A DNA stretch of 64,000 bases. It comes from Chloroflexi bacterium UBA4730 (GTDB taxonomy: Bacteria > Chloroflexota > Limnocylindria > P2-11E). This document shows positions 1 through 11,762 of this stretch, in pieces. The translations under genes and the position numbers were made by a program. Under the pieces are notes generated by a model. It worked only from the letters and a program-made list of their open reading frames with translations, did no database searches and was not told where the DNA came from. Position 1 is the stretch's first letter, and every line of letters starts with the position of its first letter. The stretch is taken from contig DHJC01000081.1 in the NCBI GenBank assembly GCA_002404155.1, forward strand, positions 4,520-68,519, in the 5' to 3' direction.

Positions 1-400
1 ATGGCGCGAACAGGGACGCGTCCAGCTCCCCCGCGATCGATGCGAGCAGGACGGCCTTCGGCGCGGTGACCGCGCGGCCGACGTCGGTGCGTGCGATCGG
101 CGCAGCCCTCGCGCGCAACCGCAGCGTGCGACGGCCGGTGGTGTCGTAGGTGAACGCGAACGTCGTCGTTACGTCGCCGGGAAGCACGCGGAGCGCGATC
201 CCGAGCTCCTGGCAGAGCGTCTCCAGGGCGTCGCGCTCCTTCGGTCCGGCACGCGTCACGAGCGTCACGGCCGCGCCGAGCTTGGCCGCGGTCGCCGCGC
301 CGTAGAGCGCGGAGCCGCCCAGCCGCCAGCGCCCGTCGGGGAACTCATCGCGTGCGGTGTGGCCGATGGCGAGGAACGGGATGCGCGCGGCCTTAGACAT
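1..400 (-). CDS. PfkB-family carbohydrate kinase, N-terminal part (gene runs off window start)
   Basis: Minus-strand translation from ATG at 400 gives MSKAARIPFLAIGHTARDEFPDG..LGGSALYGAATAAKLG..VTLVTRAG, a typical ribokinase/PfkB N-terminus. Start lies 2 nt downstream of the ychF stop. Confidence 0.55.
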   Translation of the reverse strand, partial: MSKAARIPFLAIGHTARDEFPDGRWRLGGSALYGAATAAKLGAAVTLVTRAGPKERDALETLCQELGIALRVLPGDVTTTFAFTYDTTGRRTLRLRARAAPIARTDVGRAVTAPKAVLLASIAGELDASLFAP

Positions 401-1499
401 TGAAAAGTACGTTGATCACGTCGCCGTCAGCGACTTGATAGGTCTTGCCCTCCGTGCGCAGCTGACCCTGCTTGCGCGCGTTCGCCTCGCTGCCGGCCTT
501 GAGCAGCTCGTCCCAGCGAATGACCTCCGCACGGATGAAGCCGCGCTCGAGGTCGGAGTGGATCGCGCCGGCCGCCTGCTGCGCGGTCGAGCCCTTGAAG
601 ATGGTCCACGCACGAACCTCGTCCTCGCCCGCGGTGAAGAACGAGGTCAGCCCGAGCAGGTCGTACGTCGCGTGGACGACCCGATCCAGTGGCGCCTCAG
701 CGAGCCCGAGCTCGGCGCGAAACGTGCTCGCCTCCTCGGCGGGCAGCTCCGCGATCTCCGCCTCGATCTTCGCGCACACGGCCACGACCGCGGTACCGCG
801 ATGCATCGTGGCCGCGGCGCGCAACGGCGCGAGCACGGCATCGGGAGAGGCGACGTCGCCCTCGTCCACGTTCACCACCACGAGCTGCGGCATGAGGGTG
901 AGGAACCGGTAACCGCGGATGAGCCGCTGCTCCTCCGGCTCGACCTCGAGATCGCGCAGCGGCGTCTCCGTCTCGAGCGCCGGCTTCGCGCGCTGAAGGA
1001 ACGCGAGCTCGCGCTCCTTCGCTTCGCGATCCGGCCCCTTCGCACTCCGCATCTCGCGCTCGAGCGAGTCGAGGCGCCGCTCGACGATCGCGTGGTCCGA
1101 GAACAGCAGCTCGAGGTCGAGCGTCGCCATGTCGCGCAACGGATCGACCGACCCCTCGGGGTGCGGCACCGACGGATCGGCGAACGCGCGAACGACGTGC
1201 ACGAGCGCGTCCGAGTTGCGAAGATCGCCCAGCTTCTTCGGGCTGATCCCCTCGCCCGGCGTAGCGCTCTTCGCGAGGCCCAGGTCGCGATACGTGATCT
1301 CGGCGAAGGTCGTCTTCTTCGGCTTGAACAGCGCGGAGAGCTTGTCGACGCGCCCGTCGGGGACCTTCGCGACGCCGATGTTCGTCTCGCCCTCGGCACC
1401 GGCGAACGCCCCGGTCGGCGCATGGCCACCGGTGAGGAGATTGAACAGCGTGGTCTTCCCGCCGTAGGCGAGCCCGGTGATGGTCGAGCTGAGATTCAC
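393..1499 (-). CDS. ychF: Ribosome-binding ATPase YchF (Obg-family GTPase)
   Basis: C-terminal 368 aa of ORF 393..2096 carry the G1 P-loop GLAYGGKTTLFNLLTG, the YchF core and a TGS C-terminus (GDVINVLFNV). GTG start at 1499 overlaps the murI stop (GTGA). The Arg-rich upstream part of the ORF is a GC artefact. Confidence 0.9.
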   Translation of the reverse strand: MNLSSTITGLAYGGKTTLFNLLTGGHAPTGAFAGAEGETNIGVAKVPDGRVDKLSALFKPKKTTFAEITYRDLGLAKSATPGEGISPKKLGDLRNSDALVHVVRAFADPSVPHPEGSVDPLRDMATLDLELLFSDHAIVERRLDSLEREMRSAKGPDREAKERELAFLQRAKPALETETPLRDLEVEPEEQRLIRGYRFLTLMPQLVVVNVDEGDVASPDAVLAPLRAAATMHRGTAVVAVCAKIEAEIAELPAEEASTFRAELGLAEAPLDRVVHATYDLLGLTSFFTAGEDEVRAWTIFKGSTAQQAAGAIHSDLERGFIRAEVIRWDELLKAGSEANARKQGQLRTEGKTYQVADGDVINVLFNV

Positions 1500-2320
1500 C
1501 CGAGTGAGGCCTGCTCGACCGCAGGCAGGTCCTCCCCGAAGATCGCGCGCGCGACCCCGCGGAACCGGTCCGTCGGCCCGGTCGCGAACACGCGATGCCC
1601 AGGCGCCCCGGTCGTCCGGACCAGCCGGTGCGAGAGCAACACTTCGCGCACCGCGAGGGCCGTCGTGGCCGCGGAGTCCACGACACGCACGCCCGGCCCG
1701 GCGACGCGCTCGATGACGCCTCGCAGCAGCGGGTAGTGCGTGCAGCCAAGCAGCAGCGTGTCCACGACCGGCTGCACGACGCCGCCCTCGGTGAGGAGCG
1801 GCTGCACGTAGCCGCGCACCGCCGCCTCGGCCTCGGCGCTGTCGGCCTTCCCACTTTCGACGAGCGGCACGAGGGCCGGACACGCCTGCTGGATGACGTC
1901 GGCCAGCGGATCGAGGTCGCGGAGGGCCCGCGCGTACGCGCCTGAGCGGACCGTGGCCGTCGTCGCGAGCACGCCGATCGATCGCCGAGCGGACGCCGAG
2001 ATCGCGGCGGCCGCGCCGGGCCGGACGACGCCGATGATCGGAACGCGCGACTCGTCGCGGACCACGTCGAGCGCGACGGACGTCGCCGTGTTGCACGCGA
2101 GGACGATCAATTTGCAGTCGCGCGCGCTGAACCAGCCGAGGGCCTCGCGAGTGAAAGCGACGATCTCATCCGCGGGTCGGGGTCCGTACGGCATGCGCGC
2201 CTCGTCCCCGAGATAGATGGTCGACTCGCCGGGAAGCTGGCGGCGCATCTCGCGCAACACCGTGAGCCCGCCGACGCCGGAGTCGAAGACCCCGATGGGC
2301 AGATCTGCGGCCTCGGTCAC
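1496..2320 (-). CDS. murI: Glutamate racemase
   Basis: 274-aa ORF with IGVFDSGVGGLTV, ACNTA and GCTHYP motifs. 4-nt overlaps with both neighbours. Confidence 0.9.
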   Translation of the reverse strand: MTEAADLPIGVFDSGVGGLTVLREMRRQLPGESTIYLGDEARMPYGPRPADEIVAFTREALGWFSARDCKLIVLACNTATSVALDVVRDESRVPIIGVVRPGAAAAISASARRSIGVLATTATVRSGAYARALRDLDPLADVIQQACPALVPLVESGKADSAEAEAAVRGYVQPLLTEGGVVQPVVDTLLLGCTHYPLLRGVIERVAGPGVRVVDSAATTALAVREVLLSHRLVRTTGAPGHRVFATGPTDRFRGVARAIFGEDLPAVEQASLG

Positions 2321-3426
2321 CGCTTCCGTTGCTGGCTGACGAGCGCGTTCGCGAGGTTCGCGACCGCCTGCGACACCGGCGCGTTCGCGTTCGAAAGGAC
2401 GAACGGAGCCTGCTTGTTGTTCGACTCGCTCACGAGCTTCGAGTCGGACGGGATCTCACCGACGACCGGCAGGTTGAGCGCGTGCTCCATGCCGCCCTTG
2501 GACAGGCCGGCGGTCAGGTCGGACTGGTTGACGACGAGCAGCAGCGGCTTCTGACCCTTGTAGCCGAGCGCCTCGAAGGTGTCGATGGCCGATCGCGTGT
2601 TCGCGATCGTGGAGCCCTGGTACGTGATGATGATCAGGATCACACTGGCTGCGTCGAGGATCGCGAGCGTATCCTCCGACAATCGAGCCGGCGTGTCGAC
2701 GATCACGTAGTCGTGGTTGCCGGCGAGCAGCCCAATCGCGTTCGTGAGCTCGCTCACGGCCACGAGATCGGCCTCTTCGGGCCGCGGCGGCGCGAGGAGC
2801 ACATCGATACCGCCGGGACCTTCCCAGATCGCCTCCGCCAGCGTGCCGCGCATGGCGGCGCCGGCCGGCAGATCCACGATCGAGCGCGTCGCCGGCGGAA
2901 CCGGCAGCAGGTGACGTACCGCACCGAACTGCATGACGCCATCGAACAGTGCGACCGACGCGCCGTTACGGCGCAGCACGCACGCGAGGTTGACCGCGAT
3001 GGTGGTCTTGCCGGTCCCGCCTTTCGGCGAATAGACGGCGATGATCTGGCCGCCGCCCTCGTGTTTCCCGCCTCTCGTGCCGCCAAGCGCCGACGCGAGC
3101 TCGTTCGCGCCGCCGGGCAGGACGAACACCGCGTCGATCCCCTGTTCGGGCCGCGGGTCCACGGGCCGCTGCGGCACCGTGACGACGACGATCCGCGTCC
3201 CCGGCGACGCCGCGCGGATCCGCTTCGCGACGTCGAATCCGGTGACCTTGCCCTGGAGGAGCGCGTCCACCAGGACCACGTCCGGCTTCTCTGTCTTGGC
3301 CTGGGTGATGCCGGCCTCAGCCTGGCCCTGCACGCCGGCGACCTCAACGTCCTTCTCGCGCGCGAGCATGCTCTTCAGGTGCTCCGCGACCTGGGGCAGG
3401 TCTTCGATGAGAAGGACTCGCTTCAC
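2317..3426 (-). CDS. Response-regulator receiver domain fused to ParA/MinD-like ATPase (CpaE/TadZ-like)
   Basis: N-terminal REC fold (MKRVLLIEDLP...PDVVLVD). C-terminal deviant Walker A IIAVYSPKGGTGKTTIAVNLA with ParA/MinD core. Stop overlaps murI start. Confidence 0.8.
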   Translation of the reverse strand: MKRVLLIEDLPQVAEHLKSMLAREKDVEVAGVQGQAEAGITQAKTEKPDVVLVDALLQGKVTGFDVAKRIRAASPGTRIVVVTVPQRPVDPRPEQGIDAVFVLPGGANELASALGGTRGGKHEGGGQIIAVYSPKGGTGKTTIAVNLACVLRRNGASVALFDGVMQFGAVRHLLPVPPATRSIVDLPAGAAMRGTLAEAIWEGPGGIDVLLAPPRPEEADLVAVSELTNAIGLLAGNHDYVIVDTPARLSEDTLAILDAASVILIIITYQGSTIANTRSAIDTFEALGYKGQKPLLLVVNQSDLTAGLSKGGMEHALNLPVVGEIPSDSKLVSESNNKQAPFVLSNANAPVSQAVANLANALVSQQRKR

Positions 3427-3437
3427 GTTCGGCGAGT

Positions 3438-4121
3438 CTAACGATGGCCCCGGCGCAACGTCGCGGCCGCAGCGATCGCGATGACCCCCATCGCCACGAC
3501 GAACGCGAGCCCGACCCTCAGGGTCACGCCGTACCAGTACGGATCGGGGTATACCGCGAGCAGGTTCGAGTCCGCGTCGAAGAGGAAGTTCCCCTGCGGG
3601 AACAAGACCTGGTGGAACAGGAGGAACAGCGGGTCGAACGCCACCGCCGCTCCGACCGCGACGACGGCGGCGCCCGCGCCGGCGGCGACGGCCGCGGCGC
3701 GGAGCAGGGCGAACGCCGCCCGCCGCCCACGCTGCGCGACCCGCGCGACGAGGAGGATCGCGGCGATCCCGCCGATCGCCGCGGCGACCTCGAACGCGAC
3801 GAACACCCGTCGCACGTCGGCCATGTGGGCGTACTCGTCCGCCGTGAAGAGGACGACCCCGGGCTCGCTTGGTGGGGCGTCCGCGCGGCCGCTGACGTAG
3901 GCGAGCCAGCGCTCGTGCAGGTCCAGCAGGCGCGGCAGCTCGACCGGCTCCGTCCTCGACACGCCGCGGTCATCGGCGATGTGGAACGTCGCAGGCGCGA
4001 AGCCCGTATCGCGCGCAAGCGCCTCGTACGTGCTCGGCCCGGCGAAGACGAGCGCGAGCGTCACGAGTCCCGCGACCGCGAGCGCAATCGCGAGCACCGC
4101 GATCTCCCAGCGCCGCGTCAC
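3438..4121 (-). CDS. Integral membrane protein (DUF1461/TIGR01906-like)
   Basis: Hydrophobic 227-aa product (IAVLAIALAVAGLVTLALVFAG...YWYGVTLRVGLAFVVAMGVIAIAAA). GTG start at 4121 overlaps the stop of the upstream epimerase (GTGA). Confidence 0.6.
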   Translation of the reverse strand: MTRRWEIAVLAIALAVAGLVTLALVFAGPSTYEALARDTGFAPATFHIADDRGVSRTEPVELPRLLDLHERWLAYVSGRADAPPSEPGVVLFTADEYAHMADVRRVFVAFEVAAAIGGIAAILLVARVAQRGRRAAFALLRAAAVAAGAGAAVVAVGAAVAFDPLFLLFHQVLFPQGNFLFDADSNLLAVYPDPYWYGVTLRVGLAFVVAMGVIAIAAAATLRRGHR

Positions 4122-5140
4122 GCGCGTCGAAGCACCCCGAGGCCAGGTCGCTCGCTGAACACGAATCGGCCACGCTCCACGGGCACCGCGATGAACGGAT
4201 CGTCGACGATGAGCAGGTTGCCGTCCAGGTCGGCCCACTCCACGGCGGGTGCGAGATGCGCGGCGGCGGCGATGGCGACGCTCGTCTCCGCGGCCCGGCA
4301 CCCGAGCATCACCTTCAGACCGAGCTCGTGCGCCCGCTGGATCATGGCTCGGCCCTCCGCGATGCCGCCACATTTCTGGAGCTTCACGTTGATCCCATCG
4401 CAGGCGCCGGCGAGCCGGTCGACATCAGCGAGGCGCACCGCCGCCTCGTCTGCGACGATCGGGAGCAGGCTGTGCTCCCGCACGTGACGAAGACCCTCGA
4501 GGTCCGCGGGCGCGACCGGCTGCTCGACGAACTCGAGGCCGAACGGCGCGATCCGCTCGATCCGGGCCGGCGCTTCCTCGGCCGTCCACGCCCCATTGGG
4601 GTCCACGCGGATCGCGCCATCGAAGACCCGCCGGATCCCGTCGAGGATCGCGACATCGTCCCCGTGTCCGAGCTTGACCTTGAGCACGCTGAATCCGGCT
4701 GCCTTGGCCGCAGTCGCTCGCTCGGCCATGAGCGCGGGCTCCGCGATCCCGATCGTGAACGATGTCGGCGGCGCCTCCGCCGGCGCCAGCCCGAGGAACG
4801 TGCGCAGCGGCTGGCCGGCCTCCTGCGCAGCCCGGTCGTGCCCGAGCACGTCGAGCGCGCACGCGGCAGCGCCGCCATGCGGGAATCGGGCATCGAGACG
4901 CGCACGGAGGGTCGCGAGATCGCGCGGATCCTCGGGCACGCAGTCGAACGCGCCGCGGACGTCCGCCTCCAACGACTCGCTCGTCTCCCCGAAGAACGGG
5001 TCCGCGGACGCTTCCCCGTAGGAGATGCGCCCGCCGTCGTCAAGCTCGACGAGCACGACACGCTTCTCCGTCCGGACGGCGCGCGAGATCGCGAACGGAA
5101 CGGCGAGATGCACGTCGACCGTGCGCACGGTGAACCTCAT
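4118..5140 (-). CDS. Enolase-superfamily dipeptide epimerase / N-acylamino-acid racemase (DgcA-like)
   Basis: 340-aa product from MRFTVRTVDVHLAVPF... with KVKLG, metal ligands and a catalytic-Lys region typical of MR/MLE-family L-Ala-D/L-Glu epimerases. ATG at 5140 overlaps the DUF1611 stop (ATGA). Confidence 0.8.
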   Translation of the reverse strand: MRFTVRTVDVHLAVPFAISRAVRTEKRVVLVELDDGGRISYGEASADPFFGETSESLEADVRGAFDCVPEDPRDLATLRARLDARFPHGGAAACALDVLGHDRAAQEAGQPLRTFLGLAPAEAPPTSFTIGIAEPALMAERATAAKAAGFSVLKVKLGHGDDVAILDGIRRVFDGAIRVDPNGAWTAEEAPARIERIAPFGLEFVEQPVAPADLEGLRHVREHSLLPIVADEAAVRLADVDRLAGACDGINVKLQKCGGIAEGRAMIQRAHELGLKVMLGCRAAETSVAIAAAAHLAPAVEWADLDGNLLIVDDPFIAVPVERGRFVFSERPGLGVLRRA

Positions 5141-6198
5141 CGGACCAGTCCCGCGGCCAATCGATCGGAGCCTGCCGCGCCTTCGCGGACCGGGTCGGCC
5201 GCCGGGAGGCCCGTCGCGGTCCCGGCCGCTTGGACCGCGCGCCTGGCCGCGCCCAGGTCGAGCGCGCTGGTGTTGAGCGCGATCCCGACGACGGGGACCC
5301 GCGTGCCCGCCGCGCGGCTCCAGGTGGCCGCATCCTCGTAGAGCCGCACGAGCTCGGGAAGCGGCTTCAGCGAGAGCCCGGGGAATCCTTTGACCTCCGC
5401 ACGCGACGCGTCGTGGCACAGGACCAACAGGTCCGGGGCGCTGCCGTGCAGCAGCCCGAGGGTCACGCCGGAGAAGCCGGGATGCGTGAGCGAGCCCTGG
5501 CCCTCGACGACGACCCAGTCGGCCCGCTCGGCCGCGTCGCAGACCATTTGCTCGGCGGCACCCGCGATGAAATCCGCGACCACCGCATCGATGGAGATGC
5601 CCTCGCCCGCGATCGCGATCCCGGTCTGACCGGTGGCGACGAACGCGGCGCGCTTCCCAGCGCGCTCCAGCGCGCGCACGAGCTCGAGGGCGACCGTCAT
5701 CTTCCCCACTGCGGCGTCGGAGCCCACCGTAAGCACCACGCACGTTGCCGCTCGCCGCTGACGATGGCCGCCGATCGGGAGATCCGCCGGCGGTTCGCGG
5801 AGCTCGCGGACCCGACCGCCGCCCCGCTGCGCGGCGTCGCGCAAGGCCGGGTCCGCCAGCACGCGCTCGTGCAGCCCATTCCAGACCTCGAGGCCCCTGC
5901 CCAGCGCGTCTGCGAGCAGCGGCCGGTATGAGTCGGCGATGCGGCCCCCTGGCGCGGCCGTGCCGATCAGCAGGACCGTGGCGCCGCGGGCGATCGCCTC
6001 GAGGATCGTGCCAACGACCGGCACGCCCCGGCCGACGCCGATCGCGTCCGCGCTATCCGTCCCGGCACGCGTCGAGTCGACGACGGCAACGACCGGATAC
6101 GGCGCGTACCGCAGGACCCCGATCGCCGTCTTCGCCGTCTGGGGCGTGAACAGGCCCTCGGCGAGGATCGCGACGCGGCGCGGGTCAGACACCGGCAT
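5137..6198 (-). CDS. DUF1611 protein (DgcN-like N-acetyltransferase family)
   Basis: 353 aa with the characteristic VLTVGSDAAVGKMTVALEL P-loop-like motif of DUF1611. Adjacent to an enolase-superfamily epimerase, as in dgcN-dgcA pairs. Confidence 0.75.
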   Translation of the reverse strand: MPVSDPRRVAILAEGLFTPQTAKTAIGVLRYAPYPVVAVVDSTRAGTDSADAIGVGRGVPVVGTILEAIARGATVLLIGTAAPGGRIADSYRPLLADALGRGLEVWNGLHERVLADPALRDAAQRGGGRVRELREPPADLPIGGHRQRRAATCVVLTVGSDAAVGKMTVALELVRALERAGKRAAFVATGQTGIAIAGEGISIDAVVADFIAGAAEQMVCDAAERADWVVVEGQGSLTHPGFSGVTLGLLHGSAPDLLVLCHDASRAEVKGFPGLSLKPLPELVRLYEDAATWSRAAGTRVPVVGIALNTSALDLGAARRAVQAAGTATGLPAADPVREGAAGSDRLAAGLVR

Positions 6199-7765
6199 CG
6201 CGGCCGAGACGAAGGAACCGCCCGGGCCGCTCGGCGAGCGTCTCGTCGCCGTGCGTTACGACCTCGCCGTTCACGATGACGTGATCGATGCCGGTCGGGT
6301 AGCGGTGCGGGTCGTCGTACGTGGCGGTGTCGATGATCCGGTCCGGATCGAACACCACGAGATCGGCCCAGGCGCCTTCGCGGACGACCCCGCGATCGCG
6401 CAGCTTCAGCCGCGAGGCGGTCAGCGACGTCATCTTCCGCACGGCGTCCTCGAGCGTGATGATGCCCGCATCGCGCGCGTAGTGACCGAGGATCCGCGGG
6501 AACGTACCGTACGAGCGCGGGTGCGGCTTCCCGAACGAGAGCGGTCCGTACGGCGCGTTCGCGCGCGAATCGCTGCCCGCGCACACCCAGGGCTTCGCCA
6601 TCACGTACCGGACGTCGGCCTCGTCCATCGAGTGGTGGATGATGTCGATCGCGCCGTCATGTTCGATGAGCGCATCGCAGGTCCATTCGAGCGGGTCCTT
6701 CGTCGCCGCCGCGGCGAGGGCGGCGACGCTCTTCCCGGACCAGTCCGGATGGTGCATCGCGCGAGCGATCACGATGTCTGGCCAGTTCCGCTCGGTCTCG
6801 GTGTACTCACCGCGGATCCGTTGCCGGACCGCCGGATCCAAGAGGCGCCCGCAGAGGGCCATCGAGCCGCCGGCGTGGGCCCACTTGGGGATCGTCACCG
6901 CGAGGCCGGTGGACGACGCCGTGTAGGGGTACTGGTCGGCGATCACGTCGACGCCGTCCGCCTGGGCTCGCTCGATCATCGCGGTCGATTCCTTCACCTT
7001 GCCCCAGTTGCGCTTCTGCGAGGCCTTGTGGTGCGAGAGCTGCACCCGGACCCCGCTCCGCCGGCCGATCTCGAGGTTCTCGTCGATGGCGGCGAAGAGC
7101 TCGTCGCCTTCGTTCCGGATATGGCTCGCGTACAGCCCGTCGCGTTCGCGAACGATCGTCGCGAGCGCGCCGATCTCAGCGCTGGTCCCGTACGCGCTCG
7201 GCGGATAGATCAGCCCGGTCGAGAGGCCGATCGCGCCATCCTCGAGGGATTTCGCGAGCAGCGCCTTCATCGCCGCGAGCTCGCCGCCCGTCGGCGGCCG
7301 GTCATCCGCGCCCATGACGCACATCCGCAGGGTGCCGTGGCCCACGAACGAGCAGAAGTTGATGGCGGTGCCGGACCGGTCGATCGCGTCCGCGTACTCG
7401 CCGAACGAGCTCCACGTGCGCTCGAGGTCGTAGCGTTTGATGTCGCGATCGAGCTCCTCCGCGGCCAGGCCCATGACCGGCGCGGACGCGCCGCCGCAGT
7501 TCCCGGCGACGACGCACGTGACGCCCTGATGCACCGTGCTCTCGAGCGCCGAGTTGATCAGGACGGATTCGTCCGAGTGCGAGTGGATGTCGATGAATCC
7601 CGGGCTGACGACCCGATCGCGCGCGTCGATCGTGCGGGCGCCGAAGCCGCTGCCGACCTCGCCGATCCCGACGATACGGCCGTCGCGGACGGCAACGTCC
7701 GCGCGGCGCCGCGCGGCGCCGGTGCCGTCGATGACCTGCCCGCCGCGGATGACCAGTTCGGTCAC
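6185..7765 (-). CDS. N-acyl-D-amino-acid deacylase (D-aminoacylase, amidohydrolase superfamily)
   Basis: 526 aa. N-terminus LVIRGGQVIDGTG...SPGFIDIHSHSD matches the HxH metal site, and overall length and motifs match D-aminoacylase. Confidence 0.85.
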   Translation of the reverse strand: MTELVIRGGQVIDGTGAARRRADVAVRDGRIVGIGEVGSGFGARTIDARDRVVSPGFIDIHSHSDESVLINSALESTVHQGVTCVVAGNCGGASAPVMGLAAEELDRDIKRYDLERTWSSFGEYADAIDRSGTAINFCSFVGHGTLRMCVMGADDRPPTGGELAAMKALLAKSLEDGAIGLSTGLIYPPSAYGTSAEIGALATIVRERDGLYASHIRNEGDELFAAIDENLEIGRRSGVRVQLSHHKASQKRNWGKVKESTAMIERAQADGVDVIADQYPYTASSTGLAVTIPKWAHAGGSMALCGRLLDPAVRQRIRGEYTETERNWPDIVIARAMHHPDWSGKSVAALAAAATKDPLEWTCDALIEHDGAIDIIHHSMDEADVRYVMAKPWVCAGSDSRANAPYGPLSFGKPHPRSYGTFPRILGHYARDAGIITLEDAVRKMTSLTASRLKLRDRGVVREGAWADLVVFDPDRIIDTATYDDPHRYPTGIDHVIVNGEVVTHGDETLAERPGRFLRLGRDAGV

Positions 7766-8940
7766 TTCGCGCGGGCGGGCGTGAACGCGGCCTTCGCCTG
7801 CTTCAGCAGCTCGGGGCGCCCGAGGAGGTCGATCGCGGTGAACGCCAGCGCTTTGGCCGCGACGTGCATCGTCTCGAGCGCGCGGGGCGTCCGCGCGGCG
7901 GCTGCGAACTCTCGCGAGTGCCAGGGCACGCGATCGTCGCTCACGGACAGGAACGGATGGATCGACGGGATGACCGAGCTGATGTTCCCCATGTCGGTCG
8001 AGCCGGAGGTCTCGCCCGCACGCCGCGACCCGAGCTCGCGGCCGAGCCCCCGCGCATTCTCGAAGAACGCCGTCGCCATCGGCTGGTTCGTCGTGACCAT
8101 GTCCATCGCTTCACCCCACTCGTAACGCAGCTCGCACCCGGTCGCCGTCGCCGCACCCTCGAAGCACGCGAGCACGCGTCTGCGCAGATCGCCGAGATAC
8201 GACGGATCGGCGGCACGCACGACGATCTTCGCCGCGGCGCGCTCGGGGATGATGTTCGACGCCTGGCCACCGTCGGTGATGATCCCGTGGATGCGCGAGT
8301 CGCTGCGCACGAGCTGGCGGAGCGCGGACATCGCGCCCCACCCGAGCATGAGCGCGTCGAGCGCGTTCACGCCGGCGTACGGCGACGCCGCGGCGTGCGC
8401 GGCCTTGCCGCGAAATTCGATCTGTAGCACCCGCAGCGCGACCATCAACGGATCGAGTACGTCGGCGTCGGCGGGATGGAACATCATCGCGGCGTCCACG
8501 CCGTCGAAGACGCCGGCGGCGTGTAGCCTCACTTTTCCGGCTCCGCCTTCCTCGGCGGGCGTGCCGATGAGACGGACGCAGCCCTTGAGCTCGGTCGTGA
8601 CGGCAGCGACCCCCAGATAGGCGCCGACCCCGCTCGTCGCGATGAGGTTGTGGCCGCAGCCGTGGCCGATCCCGGGCAGGGCGTCGTACTCGGAGCAGAT
8701 CGCGACCGTCGGGCCGCTGCCGTTCTTCGTCTCGGAGACGAACGCCGTCTCGACGCCGCCCGCGCCCCGCGTAATCGGCAGGCCCTGTTCGGCGATGTAG
8801 TCGGCGAGTGCCAACGACGCGAAGCGCTCCTCGTATCCGAGCTCGGGGTGATCGTGGATCGCGAGCGCGAGGCGGTCGAGCGCGGCGGCGGCCTGGTCGA
8901 TGCGCGCGGCGGCGCGCTGCTTCAGTGGCTGGAGATCCAT
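7762..8940 (-). CDS. M20-family amidohydrolase (N-acyl-L-amino-acid amidohydrolase / hippuricase-like)
   Basis: 392 aa from MDLQPLKQ.. with HDHPELGYEE, AICSEYDALPGIGHGCGHN and GTPAEEGGAGK motifs. ATG at 8940; stop overlaps the D-aminoacylase start. Confidence 0.8.
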   Translation of the reverse strand: MDLQPLKQRAAARIDQAAAALDRLALAIHDHPELGYEERFASLALADYIAEQGLPITRGAGGVETAFVSETKNGSGPTVAICSEYDALPGIGHGCGHNLIATSGVGAYLGVAAVTTELKGCVRLIGTPAEEGGAGKVRLHAAGVFDGVDAAMMFHPADADVLDPLMVALRVLQIEFRGKAAHAAASPYAGVNALDALMLGWGAMSALRQLVRSDSRIHGIITDGGQASNIIPERAAAKIVVRAADPSYLGDLRRRVLACFEGAATATGCELRYEWGEAMDMVTTNQPMATAFFENARGLGRELGSRRAGETSGSTDMGNISSVIPSIHPFLSVSDDRVPWHSREFAAAARTPRALETMHVAAKALAFTAIDLLGRPELLKQAKAAFTPARAK

Positions 8941-8965
8941 CGGCGCTGCGAGCGTATCGGAGAAG

Positions 8966-9172
8966 TCAGGCCCGCCGCGTCGAGAGCACGACCTCCGCAG
9001 CGACGAACGGCACGACGACGAAGACGAGGGTGAGCGGCGTGAGCCCATCGAGCACCCGCAGGAGTGCGACGAGCGCGAGGACGCACCCGACCATCGCCCC
9101 GCGGCGCAGCCCGCGAGCGACGGCCGCATCGCGCTTGGTGCCGCGGCTAGCCCTGCGCGTCGACGCCGACAC
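8966..9172 (-). CDS. Small hydrophobic (membrane) protein; start uncertain, frame open to ~9320
   Basis: GC3-rich open frame between rmuC and the M20 gene encodes ...LLAIAAAGVAIVAFTVATRDPDGPLSVGLVVAGAAITAGALAALALVSAS...MVGCVLALVALLRVLDGLTPLTLVFVVVPFVAAEVVL. The only canonical start is GTG at 9172. Confidence 0.25.
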   Translation of the reverse strand: MSASTRRASRGTKRDAAVARGLRRGAMVGCVLALVALLRVLDGLTPLTLVFVVVPFVAAEVVLSTRRA

Positions 9173-9318
9173 GAGCGCCAGTGCGGCGAGCGCGCCGGCG
9201 GTGATCGCGGCACCCGCGACGACCAGCCCGACGCTCAGCGGTCCATCGGGATCGCGCGTCGCGACGGTGAAGGCGACGATGGCGACCCCGGCTGCGGCGA
9301 TCGCGAGGAGCGTCCCGG

Positions 9319-10500
9319 TCAGCGGTCGTCCCCCCGGGCCACGAACGGGAGGCGCCGCAGGGTGCTCTCCTCCTCGCCGGTGAGCGGAAGCGTTCCCTGC
9401 TCCGCGCTCCCAAGCGGCCGTCCAACAGCTTCGATCGCGTCCGCGGTCCGATTGAGACCGTGCAGGGAGTCGGTGTGCTTCTTTGTCGCGTTGCGCAGGT
9501 GGTCACCGAGGGTGTCGTACGCCGAGCGGAACTTTTCCAGCTCGAGCGCCGCGCGCCGCAGTCCTTCCTGCAGCTCGCGCGACCGCTCCTCCATCGCGAG
9601 ACCGCGTAGTCCGAGCGAGACCATTTGCAGATACGCCACCAGCGTGTTCGGCGAGGTCGGAAGTACCCGACGCTCCGCGCAGTAATCGCTCAGGTCCGAT
9701 TCGGCGATCGCGGCTTCGTAATACACGCCTTCCGCGGGGAAGTACAAGAACGCGTAGTCGATGGTTCCTTCCGCGGGCGAGATGTACTTCGCGACCGCGT
9801 CGACGTGGCGCTTCACCTGCTGGATGAAGGCCCGCCGCCGCGCGGCGCGCTCCGCATCGTCACGTGCCGTGCTCATGGCATTGAACGACTCGATCGGGAA
9901 TTTCGCGTCGATCGGCACGAGGCGTCCCGCGAACCGCACCACCGCGTCGACGCGCGAGCCGTCGCGGTAGCCGTACTGGAGCTCGAACGCGCCGACCGGG
10001 AGGTTGTCCGCGAGCACGCGCTCGAGCATCACCTCGCCGAACCCGCCACGCAGCTTCGGCGCGCGGAAGAGGTCGTGCAGCGACCCGACGTCCTTCGCCA
10101 GCTCGCCGATCCGCGCGCTCTGCTCGCCCAGGGTCGCGAGCTTCACCCCGAGCTCGCCGAGGGTGCGCTGCGTCGAGCCGGACTGCGTGAGCAGCTGCTG
10201 CTCGGTGGCGCCGAGCGAACGTTGCACGTCGCTCCGCAGCTCGGCGAGGGACTGGGTGTTGGCGCCGCGAAGCTCGGCCATGGTCTGCTGAAGGAGCGCT
10301 ACGTCTGCGCGCATCCCCTGCTGCAGGAGCGCGAGCGGGGTATCCGCAGGGCGGCGCCGCGCCAGGACGACGGCGACGACGACCGCGGCGATGGCCGCGG
10401 CCGTGATCGCGGCGGCGAGGATCTCCACGCTCGAATCCTCCTTCCCTCGGCCGATCGGCAGCCCGCCCATGCTAGAACGAGTGTTCGATTGATACCACAA
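9319..10500 (-). CDS. rmuC: DNA recombination protein RmuC
   Basis: 393 aa with an N-terminal TM segment, a coiled-coil region and the RmuC nuclease-like C-terminus (FPIESFNA...VAYLQMVS). Confidence 0.85.
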   Translation of the reverse strand: MWYQSNTRSSMGGLPIGRGKEDSSVEILAAAITAAAIAAVVVAVVLARRRPADTPLALLQQGMRADVALLQQTMAELRGANTQSLAELRSDVQRSLGATEQQLLTQSGSTQRTLGELGVKLATLGEQSARIGELAKDVGSLHDLFRAPKLRGGFGEVMLERVLADNLPVGAFELQYGYRDGSRVDAVVRFAGRLVPIDAKFPIESFNAMSTARDDAERAARRRAFIQQVKRHVDAVAKYISPAEGTIDYAFLYFPAEGVYYEAAIAESDLSDYCAERRVLPTSPNTLVAYLQMVSLGLRGLAMEERSRELQEGLRRAALELEKFRSAYDTLGDHLRNATKKHTDSLHGLNRTADAIEAVGRPLGSAEQGTLPLTGEEESTLRRLPFVARGDDR

Positions 10501-10535
10501 TAGATATCAGACGCCATGTCACTAGGGTCCGCCGG

Positions 10536-11762
10536 GTGCCCGAGCCGCTGACCCGGACGAAGACTGCCCTTTACTCTGCGGGTTCGATCGGCGCGGGCGC
10601 ATTCTTCGCCTTCAACAACTTCGTCCTGCCGCAGCTCCTGAAGGCCGCTGGCGCGGGTGACCTGCTCATCGGGCTGCTGTCGAGCACACGGAGCATCGAG
10701 GGCGCCATCATCCAGCCGACCGTCGGCGCGCTCTCGGATCGCACACACGGCCGGTTCGGCCGGCGGCGGCCGTTCATCGCGCTCGGCATCCCGCTGTCAG
10801 CGGCATTCTTCCTCTTCGCCGCGACGCAGCACGACGTGCTCGGACTCACCGTCGGGATCTTCCTCTTCTCGATCTTCTTCAATGCCGCAGCCGACCCGTA
10901 CGTCGCGCTCCTCGCCGACATCACGACGCTCAGCGAGCGCGGGATCCTCCAGGGCGTCTCGACAGCGATCCAGCTAGCCAGCCAGGTGGCGTTCCTCCTG
11001 CTCATCTCCACTGCGGCCGGGACCGGCGGGATCCCGGCCTGGTCGTATCTGCTGGTCGCCGGGCTCATGGTCATCACCTTCGGGATCACGGTCGGAGGCG
11101 TCCGCGAGCCGGCGGTCGTCGACGTCACCGAGACCCGCGTGGGCCGCCGCCGCTACCTCGCCGAGCTCACCGAGCATCGGCAGGCGCTGCGCTACCTCGG
11201 CGCGATCTTCGTGTTCATGGTCGGCTTCAGCGCGGTGCTCCCCTACCTGACCCTGTTCATCACCGTCGATATCGGGGAGACCGAGCCGGTCGCGCTGGCC
11301 CTTGCCGCCGGAACGCTCCTCGTCACGGCAGTGGCCGCGGTCGCGTTCGGCACGCTCGCCGACCGCATCGGGACGAAACCGGTGCTCGTCGTCGGCTGGA
11401 TCCTGCTCGCGATCGCGGCATTCGGAGGGATCATCATCCAGCGGCTCCCCGAGACGATCGCGGTCGTGGTGCTGGCCGGCATCGGGAACGGCGCGGCCAC
11501 GGCCGCCGGGTGGCCGCTCCTTGCGGCCCTCGTGCCGCCCGAGAAGACCGGGGTGTTTGCCGGCCTCAAGGCGGCCGCCGAATCGGTGGCCATCCCGGCA
11601 TCAGTGGTCGTGGCCGCGGAGCTCTTCCTTCCCCGTTTCAGCTACCGGGGCGTTTTCGTGCTGCTCGCCGGCGCGATCCTCATCGCCCTGTTCATCCTCG
11701 TCCGTTTCGTCCGTCCGCCAGGCCGCGACGGCCCGCCCGCGACCGCGACAGCGATGTCGTGA
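10536..11762 (+). CDS. MFS transporter
   Basis: 408 aa with 12 predicted TM segments and an MFS-type GRFGRRRP loop after TM2. Confidence 0.85.
   Translation: MPEPLTRTKTALYSAGSIGAGAFFAFNNFVLPQLLKAAGAGDLLIGLLSSTRSIEGAIIQPTVGALSDRTHGRFGRRRPFIALGIPLSAAFFLFAATQHDVLGLTVGIFLFSIFFNAAADPYVALLADITTLSERGILQGVSTAIQLASQVAFLLLISTAAGTGGIPAWSYLLVAGLMVITFGITVGGVREPAVVDVTETRVGRRRYLAELTEHRQALRYLGAIFVFMVGFSAVLPYLTLFITVDIGETEPVALALAAGTLLVTAVAAVAFGTLADRIGTKPVLVVGWILLAIAAFGGIIIQRLPETIAVVVLAGIGNGAATAAGWPLLAALVPPEKTGVFAGLKAAAESVAIPASVVVAAELFLPRFSYRGVFVLLAGAILIALFILVRFVRPPGRDGPPATATAMS

Follow-up and report, generated by a model that had tools for sequence, protein, structure and literature searches.

Necromass holds much of its nitrogen and carbon as peptidoglycan D-glutamate, a large reserve accessible to few organisms. 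A pathway that converts this amino acid to L-glutamate, the DgcN-DgcA route, was reportedly described by Yu et al. in ISME J in 2023 in marine Proteobacteria and haloarchaea, with Pseudoalteromonas sp. CF6-2 as the model strain, and we know of no dedicated entry or exit enzyme for it. Its two enzymes, the D-glutamate N-acetyltransferase DgcN and the N-acetyl-D-glutamate racemase DgcA, are classified as EC 2.3.1.312 and EC 5.1.1.25 (PMC11747546, PMC12363236). Another described enzyme, BT1313 of Bacteroides thetaiotaomicron, is a characterised L-Ala-D/L-Glu epimerase (PMC4600125). Here, we have analysed a window of 64,000 nucleotides from Chloroflexi bacterium UBA4730, of the class Limnocylindria (contig DHJC01000081.1, positions 4,520 to 68,519), in which a D-aminoacylase-like gene, a DUF1611 gene distantly related to dgcN and an enolase-superfamily epimerase gene lie between genes for an M20 amidohydrolase and a Lit-family membrane protein. 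With moderate confidence, and judging from homology and gene linkage, we propose that this cluster serves the cytoplasmic salvage of peptidoglycan-derived D-glutamate to L-glutamate, the first three genes being its conserved core.

Because the window has a G+C content of about 70%, reading frames were picked by third-position G+C (GC3 plot) and then checked via translation. Five co-directional minus-strand genes fill positions 8940..3438:

8940..7762, minus strand: M20 amidohydrolase, 392 amino acids (PF01546 and PF07687)
7765..6185, minus strand: Amidohydro_3 / D-aminoacylase-like protein, 526 amino acids (PF07969)
6198..5137, minus strand: DUF1611_N and DUF1611_C protein, 353 amino acids (PF17396 and PF07755)
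5140..4118, minus strand: MR_MLE enolase-superfamily epimerase, 340 amino acids (PF13378 and PF02746)
4121..3438, minus strand: Lit (formerly DUF1461) membrane protein, 227 amino acids (PF07314)

From the M20 gene to the Lit gene, successive junctions overlap by 4 nucleotides (GTGA), 14 nucleotides, 4 nucleotides (ATGA) and 4 nucleotides (GTGA). The Pfam matches of all five proteins exceed the gathering scores, and public assemblies with an identical epimerase, such as the metagenome-assembled genome GCA_003454595.1, show the same gene lengths by independent gene calling. Both the overlaps and the family assignments had been put forward in a sequence-only reading of the window, and the frame plot, the translations and the Pfam search bear them out.

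Recurrence of the trio and variation at its flanks

Which of the five genes stay together in other organisms? We searched annotated plasmids and chromids for the nearest members of the D-aminoacylase subfamily. The closest homologues outside the lineage (39-48% identity) lie beside a DUF1611 gene and/or an epimerase gene in Natrinema, Haladaptatus, Croceicoccus and Natrialba, which lends independent support to the linkage of the D-aminoacylase with the DUF1611-epimerase pair that the sequence-only reading had suggested. Natrinema caseinilyticum carries D-aminoacylase, DUF1611 and dipeptide epimerase genes in the window's order. In Haladaptatus caseinilyticus, H. pallidirubidus and H. halobius the order is D-aminoacylase, epimerase, DUF1611, epimerase, next to a peptide ATP-binding cassette (ABC) transporter, and the H. 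caseinilyticus D-aminoacylase is 43% identical to that of the window over its full length, including an insertion considered below. The Croceicoccus marinus locus consists of an epimerase, a peptide transporter of the major facilitator superfamily, a TonB receptor, a DUF1611 protein, a hypothetical protein, a serine hydrolase and the D-aminoacylase homologue. The best plasmid match (48%), in Natrialba magadii, sits with dacB, lysA, NlpC/P60, epimerase and serine hydrolase genes and without DUF1611, clearly a stem-peptide catabolic set.

Like the Croceicoccus locus, the dgc locus of Pseudoalteromonas sp. CF6-2 shows a looser version of this linkage. Directly upstream of dgcR-dgcN-dgcA it encodes a TonB receptor, a full-length homologue of the D-aminoacylase (an amidohydrolase of 523 amino acids with 30% identity over 490 residues, E = 2e-69), an M14 carboxypeptidase and a transporter of the NhaC family. 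In addition, two soil contigs have a DgcA/YcjG-like epimerase gene directly upstream of a secreted D-aminoacylase homologue, and on enterobacterial plasmids dgcN-dgcA is accompanied by genes for a peptide ABC transporter and for peptidases. The DUF1611-epimerase pairing itself matches dgcN-dgcA in Tritonibacter mobilis, Pseudoalteromonas sp. CF6-2, Vibrio, Pantoea and Klebsiella. The window proteins are 28-48% identical to their counterparts at these loci, so the pattern is not a recent transfer of one block. The D-aminoacylase linkage is a minority arrangement among DUF1611 loci, yet it is recurrent in Chloroflexota, Halobacteria, Alphaproteobacteria and, more loosely, Gammaproteobacteria, and the recurrent part of the cluster is D-aminoacylase, DUF1611 and epimerase.

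A profile search with DUF1611 yielded 80 loci from diverse genomes, which give the broader picture for the pair. The epimerase gene is directly beside DUF1611 in about 48 of them, following the order epimerase then DUF1611 in Actinomycetota and DUF1611 then epimerase in Chloroflexota, Planctomycetota and others. Other recurrent DUF1611 neighbours in further phyla (RNase Z, pyrR/pyrB/pyrC, PspA, cysS and others) were set aside as uninformative lineage synteny. Three Limnocylindrales genomes whose DUF1611 proteins are 44-46% identical to that of the window show no other cluster genes beyond the pair or DUF1611: two (L078, L080) have DUF1611 and epimerase, and in the third (L058) DUF1611 stands behind an amino-acid ABC transporter. 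These genomes would fit a view in which the DUF1611-epimerase pair alone is a functional unit and the genes for D-aminoacylase, M20 and Lit have nothing to do with it, being held nearby by inherited order in a compact genome. Consistent with such a view, close relatives share the order of the whole string of about 15 genes that runs from rmuC to ftsH, many junctions in the window overlap, up to those of murI and ychF, and the M20 gene comes and goes. We nevertheless consider it unlikely, since in Halobacteria, Alpha- and Gammaproteobacteria D-aminoacylase genes of 30-48% identity adjoin DUF1611 and/or the epimerase. Given replicons that measure 0.4-1 Mb, inherited synteny or chance hardly explains such an adjacency.

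Within the window's own lineage, close relatives, whose epimerases are 82-84% identical, have the entire stretch between rmuC and ftsH in common, so that agreement among them reflects inherited synteny. The series D-aminoacylase-DUF1611-epimerase-Lit is constant in lineage relatives with 67-91% identical D-aminoacylases, the Lit-family gene always following the epimerase gene. A metagenome profile scan with the D-aminoacylase extended this comparison: in intermediate relatives (67-71% identity) the series is constant as far as the genes for a receiver-ParA protein (REC-ParA) and MurI, and a further 73 loci lie at 38-47% identity. The five-gene set was found at none of the 80 DUF1611 genome loci and none of these 73 metagenome loci; it is confined to the window's own lineage, with the M20 gene varying there.

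This variation affects the slot upstream of the D-aminoacylase gene, where M20 is followed directly by D-aminoacylase in one form (the window, L083, L087) and by a S-adenosylmethionine (SAM) methyltransferase and then D-aminoacylase in a second (L081, L088, L091). The class-I SAM methyltransferase gene (for example L081:6542-7351), found in lineage relatives beside the M20 gene or in its place, is absent from the window. On plasmids, no M20 homologue was found near any DUF1611 or D-aminoacylase locus, and among the 80 other DUF1611 genome loci a single one gave a weak M20 match and none had a Lit-like gene. The M20 gene is thus an optional, dispensable member of the cluster within the lineage, and on the evidence of those 80 loci and of the lineage relatives M20 and Lit are lineage-specific additions. 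The idea that the five genes form a unit therefore does not hold, as the M20 gene is optional in the lineage and absent where the trio occurs elsewhere, and the Lit-like gene is lineage-specific.

Family placement and residues of the core enzymes

Both DgcN domains are present in the DUF1611 protein (PF17396, E = 9e-21; PF07755, E = 1e-70), and DgcN is its only strong NCBIfam match. Its nearest solved structures are 2OBN (236 bits) and then 7XRJ (191 bits), to which it is 39% identical. 7XRJ itself proved to be a bona fide DgcN, reaching 490 bits on the DgcN model even in truncated form. It shares 99% identity with a protein of Tritonibacter mobilis, after whose gene come dgcA and a gene for a class-IV aminotransferase. 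Across 94 family members, including 15 true DgcN, 51 columns are at least 93% conserved, and the window protein retains 48 of them. The exceptions are two conservative changes, W91Y and D132E, and a replacement in the P-loop-like motif GTDC[AS]VGKM, the Cys of which is found in 88 of 93 DUF1611 sequences, true DgcN included. In the lineage the motif reads GSDAAVGKM or GTDAAVGKM. A tie between this Cys-to-Ala change and the D-aminoacylase linkage was rejected, as the Cys is present in DgcN and also in those DUF1611 proteins of haloarchaea and Croceicoccus that are linked to a D-aminoacylase.

The DUF1611 family also occurs in other surroundings. In the species-level genome collection the nearest DUF1611 genes (about 50% identity) are in Gemmatimonadales (L001-L031); they have no adjacent epimerase gene, with a PspA-like gene and an AI-2E-type permease gene upstream and cysS downstream. 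On plasmid p1 of Burkholderia sp. FERM BP-3421 (L171, 4772-9378), DUF1611 has two ATP-grasp genes and a phytanoyl-CoA dioxygenase gene at its flanks, again without an epimerase, so that the family has at least one quite different context, possibly secondary metabolism.

The epimerase has the DgcA model as its top NCBIfam match, ahead of the model of the E. coli-type L-Ala-D/L-Glu epimerase (AEE), and is below the cut-off on both AEE models (NF011708, YcjG, 150 bits against 343; NF041118, 104 against 500). Its catalytic and metal-binding set is complete (K154, K156, D180, E206, D231, K253), and the DxD motif (D304, D306) and the 20s-loop Arg (R23) are kept. This arginine, Glu-binding according to the YkfB structure literature, is common to the Glu-specific enzymes YcjG, BT1313 and DgcA and absent from the non-Glu enzyme 3JVA; the DxD of YkfB reportedly binds the amino terminus of the dipeptide. 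With this set and the arginine retained, the epimerase very probably inverts a residue with a Glu side chain. An active-site comparison with DgcA, which the sequence-only reading had proposed, agrees at every position (KxK, K, D/E/D, DxD and Arg23). On Haladaptatus plasmids (L176, L179, L182) two different epimerase paralogues flank DUF1611, of which one could serve a dipeptide and the other N-acetyl-D-glutamate.

The D-aminoacylase-like protein has no signal peptide and is 42% identical to the N-acyl-D-glutamate deacylase Bb3285 (3GIP, 324 bits) and to the Alcaligenes faecalis D-aminoacylase. The residues of the subtype V metal centre and of catalysis, namely the HxH pair (H61, H63), the metal-bridging C90, H215, H245 and the catalytic D399, all recur in 3GIP and 1M7J. 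It carries an insertion that is kept across a large subfamily of proteins of about 526 amino acids, both cytoplasmic and secreted, and by alignment it belongs to this uncharacterised subfamily. Most of the homologues at about 40% identity, from soil and peat metagenome contigs (L097-L166), carry signal peptides. These homologues lack the HxH pair and the bridging Cys, having FIDMLGQSE and GEG instead, but retain the insertion of the subfamily. They are similar to the D-acylases without this Cys that are known as 'cluster B' (PMC12149444).

A putative salvage route and its surroundings

How might these enzymes work together? In the salvage scheme that we favour, the D-aminoacylase-like enzyme would free D-glutamate from an N-acyl-D-glutamate or from a dipeptide such as L-Ala-D-Glu; its relative Bb3285 reportedly cleaves L-Met-D-Glu as well as N-acetyl-D-glutamate. 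The DUF1611 protein, as homology and gene linkage suggest, would then N-acetylate D-glutamate with acetyl-CoA, and the epimerase, translationally coupled to DUF1611, would turn N-acetyl-D-glutamate into N-acetyl-L-glutamate in the manner of DgcA. In this genome, the M20 protein would most likely deacetylate the product to L-glutamate; relatives can lack M20, and therefore a housekeeping deacetylase could carry out this last step. Throughout the scheme we infer every substrate, from gene anatomy, families, intact catalytic residues and recurrent linkage that are themselves observed. The M20 protein scores 204 bits on TIGR01891, above the cut-off of 154, the model of a subfamily that includes N-acyl-L-amino-acid amidohydrolases; it is of the M20D type and a candidate L-specific deacylase or dipeptidase.

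Several observations weigh against this scheme. With regard to DUF1611, the protein scores 274 bits on the DgcN model NF041892, far below the equivalog cut-off of 480, and its P-loop has Ala162 in place of the conserved Cys, a change shared by all nine lineage relatives and confined to this lineage. With regard to the D-aminoacylase, an Arg-rich insertion of about 40 residues (39 amino acids, 289-327) replaces the position of Bb3285 Arg295; this arginine is said to confer D-glutamate specificity, and an enzyme for hydrophobic substrates has Leu298 there (PMC12149444). Because the insertion replaces the specificity position, the D-glutamate preference of the window enzyme remains putative. Were it to accept N-acetyl-D-glutamate, like Bb3285, it would run a futile cycle with the DUF1611 protein. 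Moreover, 79 of the 80 DUF1611 genome loci have no D-aminoacylase gene nearby, and the remaining one has it on the opposite strand. As for the M20 protein, the nearest solved relatives are HmrA (3RAM, 225 bits) and an Xaa-Arg dipeptidase (8XZC, 223 bits), and in two loci (L090, L093) the slot upstream of the D-aminoacylase gene holds the methyltransferase gene without M20. The cluster contains no transporter gene, and co-transcription is presumed from the overlaps.

The remaining adverse points concern the epimerase. On the DgcA model NF042940 it scores 205 bits, far below the equivalog cut-off of 400, and the nearest solved relative is 3IJI, that is BT1313 (213 bits), a true dipeptide epimerase that operates without DUF1611. 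BT1313 itself scores 225 bits on the DgcA model, above the window epimerase, so that this model does not discriminate, and the top match to it was rejected as proof of a DgcA. In the neighbour-joining tree DgcA clusters with 4GFI and YcjG. The window epimerase belongs to the other main branch, where it is nested in a clade of Chloroflexota epimerases linked to DUF1611; this branch also holds BT1313 and an Enterococcus dipeptide epimerase. The clade check called for by the sequence-only reading thus places the protein outside the DgcA/YcjG group, on a branch with BT1313, and among epimerases linked to DUF1611. For the DgcN/DgcA-like pair that the same reading had seen, arrangement and homology stand, but both proteins are below the equivalog cut-offs and the epimerase is outside the DgcA/YcjG clade.

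Much of this evidence would also suit a dipeptide route, in which the epimerase would act on murein L-Ala-D-Glu and the M20 protein would cleave the resulting L-Ala-L-Glu, the D-aminoacylase cleaving other peptides that end in a D-amino acid and DUF1611 being otherwise involved in peptide recycling. BT1313 has been crystallised with L-Ala-D-Glu and works beside an NlpC/P60 endopeptidase (PMC4600125); the Bacteroides locus encodes NlpC/P60 and then the epimerase, which is exported by the twin-arginine translocation (TAT) system, without DUF1611. The DxD motif retained in the window epimerase, the kinship of the M20 protein with HmrA and the Xaa-Arg dipeptidase, and the Natrialba set of NlpC/P60, epimerase and D-aminoacylase without DUF1611 point the same way, as do two annotation names: relatives of the window epimerase are called 'dipeptide epimerase' by PGAP, and DUF1611 was formerly listed in SEED as 'protein often near L-alanine-DL-glutamate epimerase (cell wall recycling)'. 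The dipeptide route, however, assigns no function to DUF1611, although this gene is the most strongly linked one, its family holds a proven D-glutamate N-acetyltransferase, and it shares the ATGA overlap with the epimerase gene and is adjacent to it in about 48 of the 80 loci. BT1313 is periplasmic, with a TAT signal, whereas the window epimerase is cytoplasmic. In addition, real DgcA also keeps the DxD, which was accordingly rejected as a marker of dipeptide versus N-acetyl substrates, and it matches the proven dipeptide epimerase YcjG with 264 bits, compared with 363 bits to 4GFI and 149 bits to BT1313; the resemblance to dipeptide epimerases is therefore compatible with a DgcA-type activity. 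For these reasons we hold the dipeptide route to be rather unlikely, though far from negligible. A call by sequence is weakened in either direction, because BT1313 exceeds the window protein on the DgcA model and DgcA is closer to YcjG: whether the N-substituent is acetyl or L-alanyl, and the enzyme an N-acetyl-D-glutamate racemase or a dipeptide epimerase, is not separable at this level.

The genes around the cluster bear on a further question, the direction of the flux. The relevant neighbours are:

3426..2317, minus strand: receiver domain and ParA/MinD (CpaE/Ssd-like) ATPase, REC-ParA, context outside the pathway
2320..1496, minus strand: glutamate racemase MurI, context (TIGR00067, 219 bits against a cut-off of 147)
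about 8966..9271, minus strand: small conserved membrane-protein open reading frame, start uncertain, between rmuC and the M20 gene

REC-ParA sits between Lit and murI, its start being 11 nucleotides past the Lit stop, and murI lies on the same strand 1.1 kb beyond that stop, which agrees with the distance of about 1 kb given by the sequence-only reading. The functional meaning attached there to this proximity carries little weight, because the REC-ParA/murI/ychF string is syntenic in all close relatives. Nor are overlaps special to the five genes: murI overlaps both REC-ParA upstream and ychF downstream by GTGA, and a rough gene map shows nine further overlapping same-strand junctions elsewhere in the window. 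The overlaps are real, but as a sign of co-translation they do not single out the five genes; they mark a compact string of at least eight genes and no delimited five-gene unit. A consensus scan of positions 1..11000, uninformative at 70% G+C, found no promoter-like sites, terminator-like sites at chance level only, and no promoter or terminator signal marking the borders of a unit.

Given the proximity of murI, could the route run backwards? N-acetyl-L-glutamate, from arginine synthesis or from the DUF1611 protein, would then be inverted and deacylated by the D-aminoacylase to D-glutamate, giving the cell wall a MurI-independent supply or a D-glutamate buffer co-expressed with murI. Pairs of a racemase and a D-acylase are used industrially for D-amino acids (PMC12149444), and in the window D-specific and L-specific deacylases flank the pair while murI belongs to the same overlap string. 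But murI is present and intact, which makes a reverse route redundant; the contexts elsewhere are catabolic (peptide transporters, TonB receptors, NlpC/P60, M14 and S9 peptidases, lysA), and DgcN is reported to act on D-glutamate (PMC11747546, PMC12363236). We therefore regard a reverse route as highly improbable. It is also very unlikely, if slightly less so, that the module is a two-way, acetyl-mediated converter between D- and L-glutamate that sets the cell-wall D-glutamate pool as a source or sink independent of MurI; under that reading, the lineage-specific loss of the DUF1611 Cys could be the mark of another substrate or stereochemistry. The complete reversible module of the sequence-only reading is not the most economical one, since a D-aminoacylase taking N-acetyl-D-glutamate would undo the DgcN step.

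For the salvage scheme, the Lit-like, REC-ParA, murI and ychF genes are best seen as neighbours in a long, compact, co-directional string, any pathway role being putative. The Lit-family protein has 4-5 hydrophobic segments by hydropathy and matches PF07314 with 56 bits (gathering score 24) over model positions 70-176 only. It is below the cut-off on NF051877 (25 against 400 bits) and TIGR01906 (42 against 75) and is accordingly a family member by profile score and no Lit orthologue; it probably has no role in the cluster. In the window, REC-ParA, murI and ychF (393..3426, minus strand) are joined by GTGA overlaps; these three genes are conserved downstream of the cluster in all relatives, which may tie the REC-ParA protein to cell division or the cell wall. 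The small open reading frame upstream of the M20 gene is 67% identical to a 109-amino-acid gene called at L083:5829-6158 and is present in all lineage relatives; the listing of open reading frames gives it just 68 amino acids, from GTG 9172.

Comparison with known systems

The DgcN-DgcA pathway shares with the window the adjacency and common direction of the two families, most of the family-conserved positions and the Glu-type Arg of the epimerase, and upstream of the CF6-2 pair lie genes for a D-aminoacylase-like amidohydrolase and a peptidase. The window differs in its identities to that system (36-39% for DUF1611, 28-33% for the epimerase), in scores below the equivalog cut-offs, in the other epimerase clade, in having neither a dgcR regulator nor a transporter, and in the change of the P-loop Cys to Ala; moreover, its D-aminoacylase gene is joined to the pair by overlapping codons, and M20 is added. 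Since the score thresholds are not reached and the clade is another, the window DUF1611 protein and epimerase stand strictly outside the DgcN and DgcA equivalog families, yet, as far as their sequences tell, they may function as DgcN and DgcA do.

The murein-peptide recycling systems (E. coli YcjG/MpaA, B. subtilis YkfB/YkfC, Bacteroides BT1313/BT1314) have in common with the window the epimerase family, the catalytic residues, the DxD, the Glu-binding Arg and the theme of peptidoglycan salvage, BT1313 being the nearest solved relative. Their epimerases, however, are paired with an NlpC/P60 or M14 endopeptidase or amidase and not with DUF1611, whereas a peptidase of that kind is missing from the window, where the epimerase gene is coupled in translation to DUF1611. 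The logic of the cluster also recalls the N-succinylamino acid racemase (NSAR) route of Geobacillus kaustophilus, which, as reported by Sakai et al. in Biochemistry in 2006, is said to acylate a D-amino acid, racemise the N-acyl form with an enolase-superfamily enzyme and remove the acyl group by an M20 L-deacylase, for a net irreversible conversion of D to L. That route reportedly differs in using a GCN5-related N-acetyltransferase (GNAT) with succinyl-CoA and a racemase of the NSAR/o-succinylbenzoate synthase type rather than the AEE/DgcA type, and in lacking a D-aminoacylase. Finally, Bb3285 (3GIP/3GIQ) and the D-aminoacylases (EC 3.5.1.81-83) share with the window enzyme the fold family and the metal and catalytic residues, including the bridging Cys, at 42% identity; in the window enzyme the insertion of about 40 residues takes the place of the Arg295 loop (PMC12149444).

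Among the papers searched, none links a D-aminoacylase to DgcN-DgcA. The D-aminoacylase-DUF1611-epimerase trio is the useful result of this analysis, a plausible but modest, incremental extension of a known pathway. Should the three genes of the trio function together, the step by which bound D-glutamate enters the pathway would have its enzyme named, and the large subfamily of D-aminoacylases of about 526 amino acids would acquire its first physiological role. The pathway would likewise reach the Limnocylindria, Chloroflexota that abound in soil, and also, on the strength of the adjacent pair by itself, Actinomycetota and Planctomycetota. With the M20 gene as a candidate for the final deacetylase, the cluster would refine the known pathway rather than represent a new kind of system.

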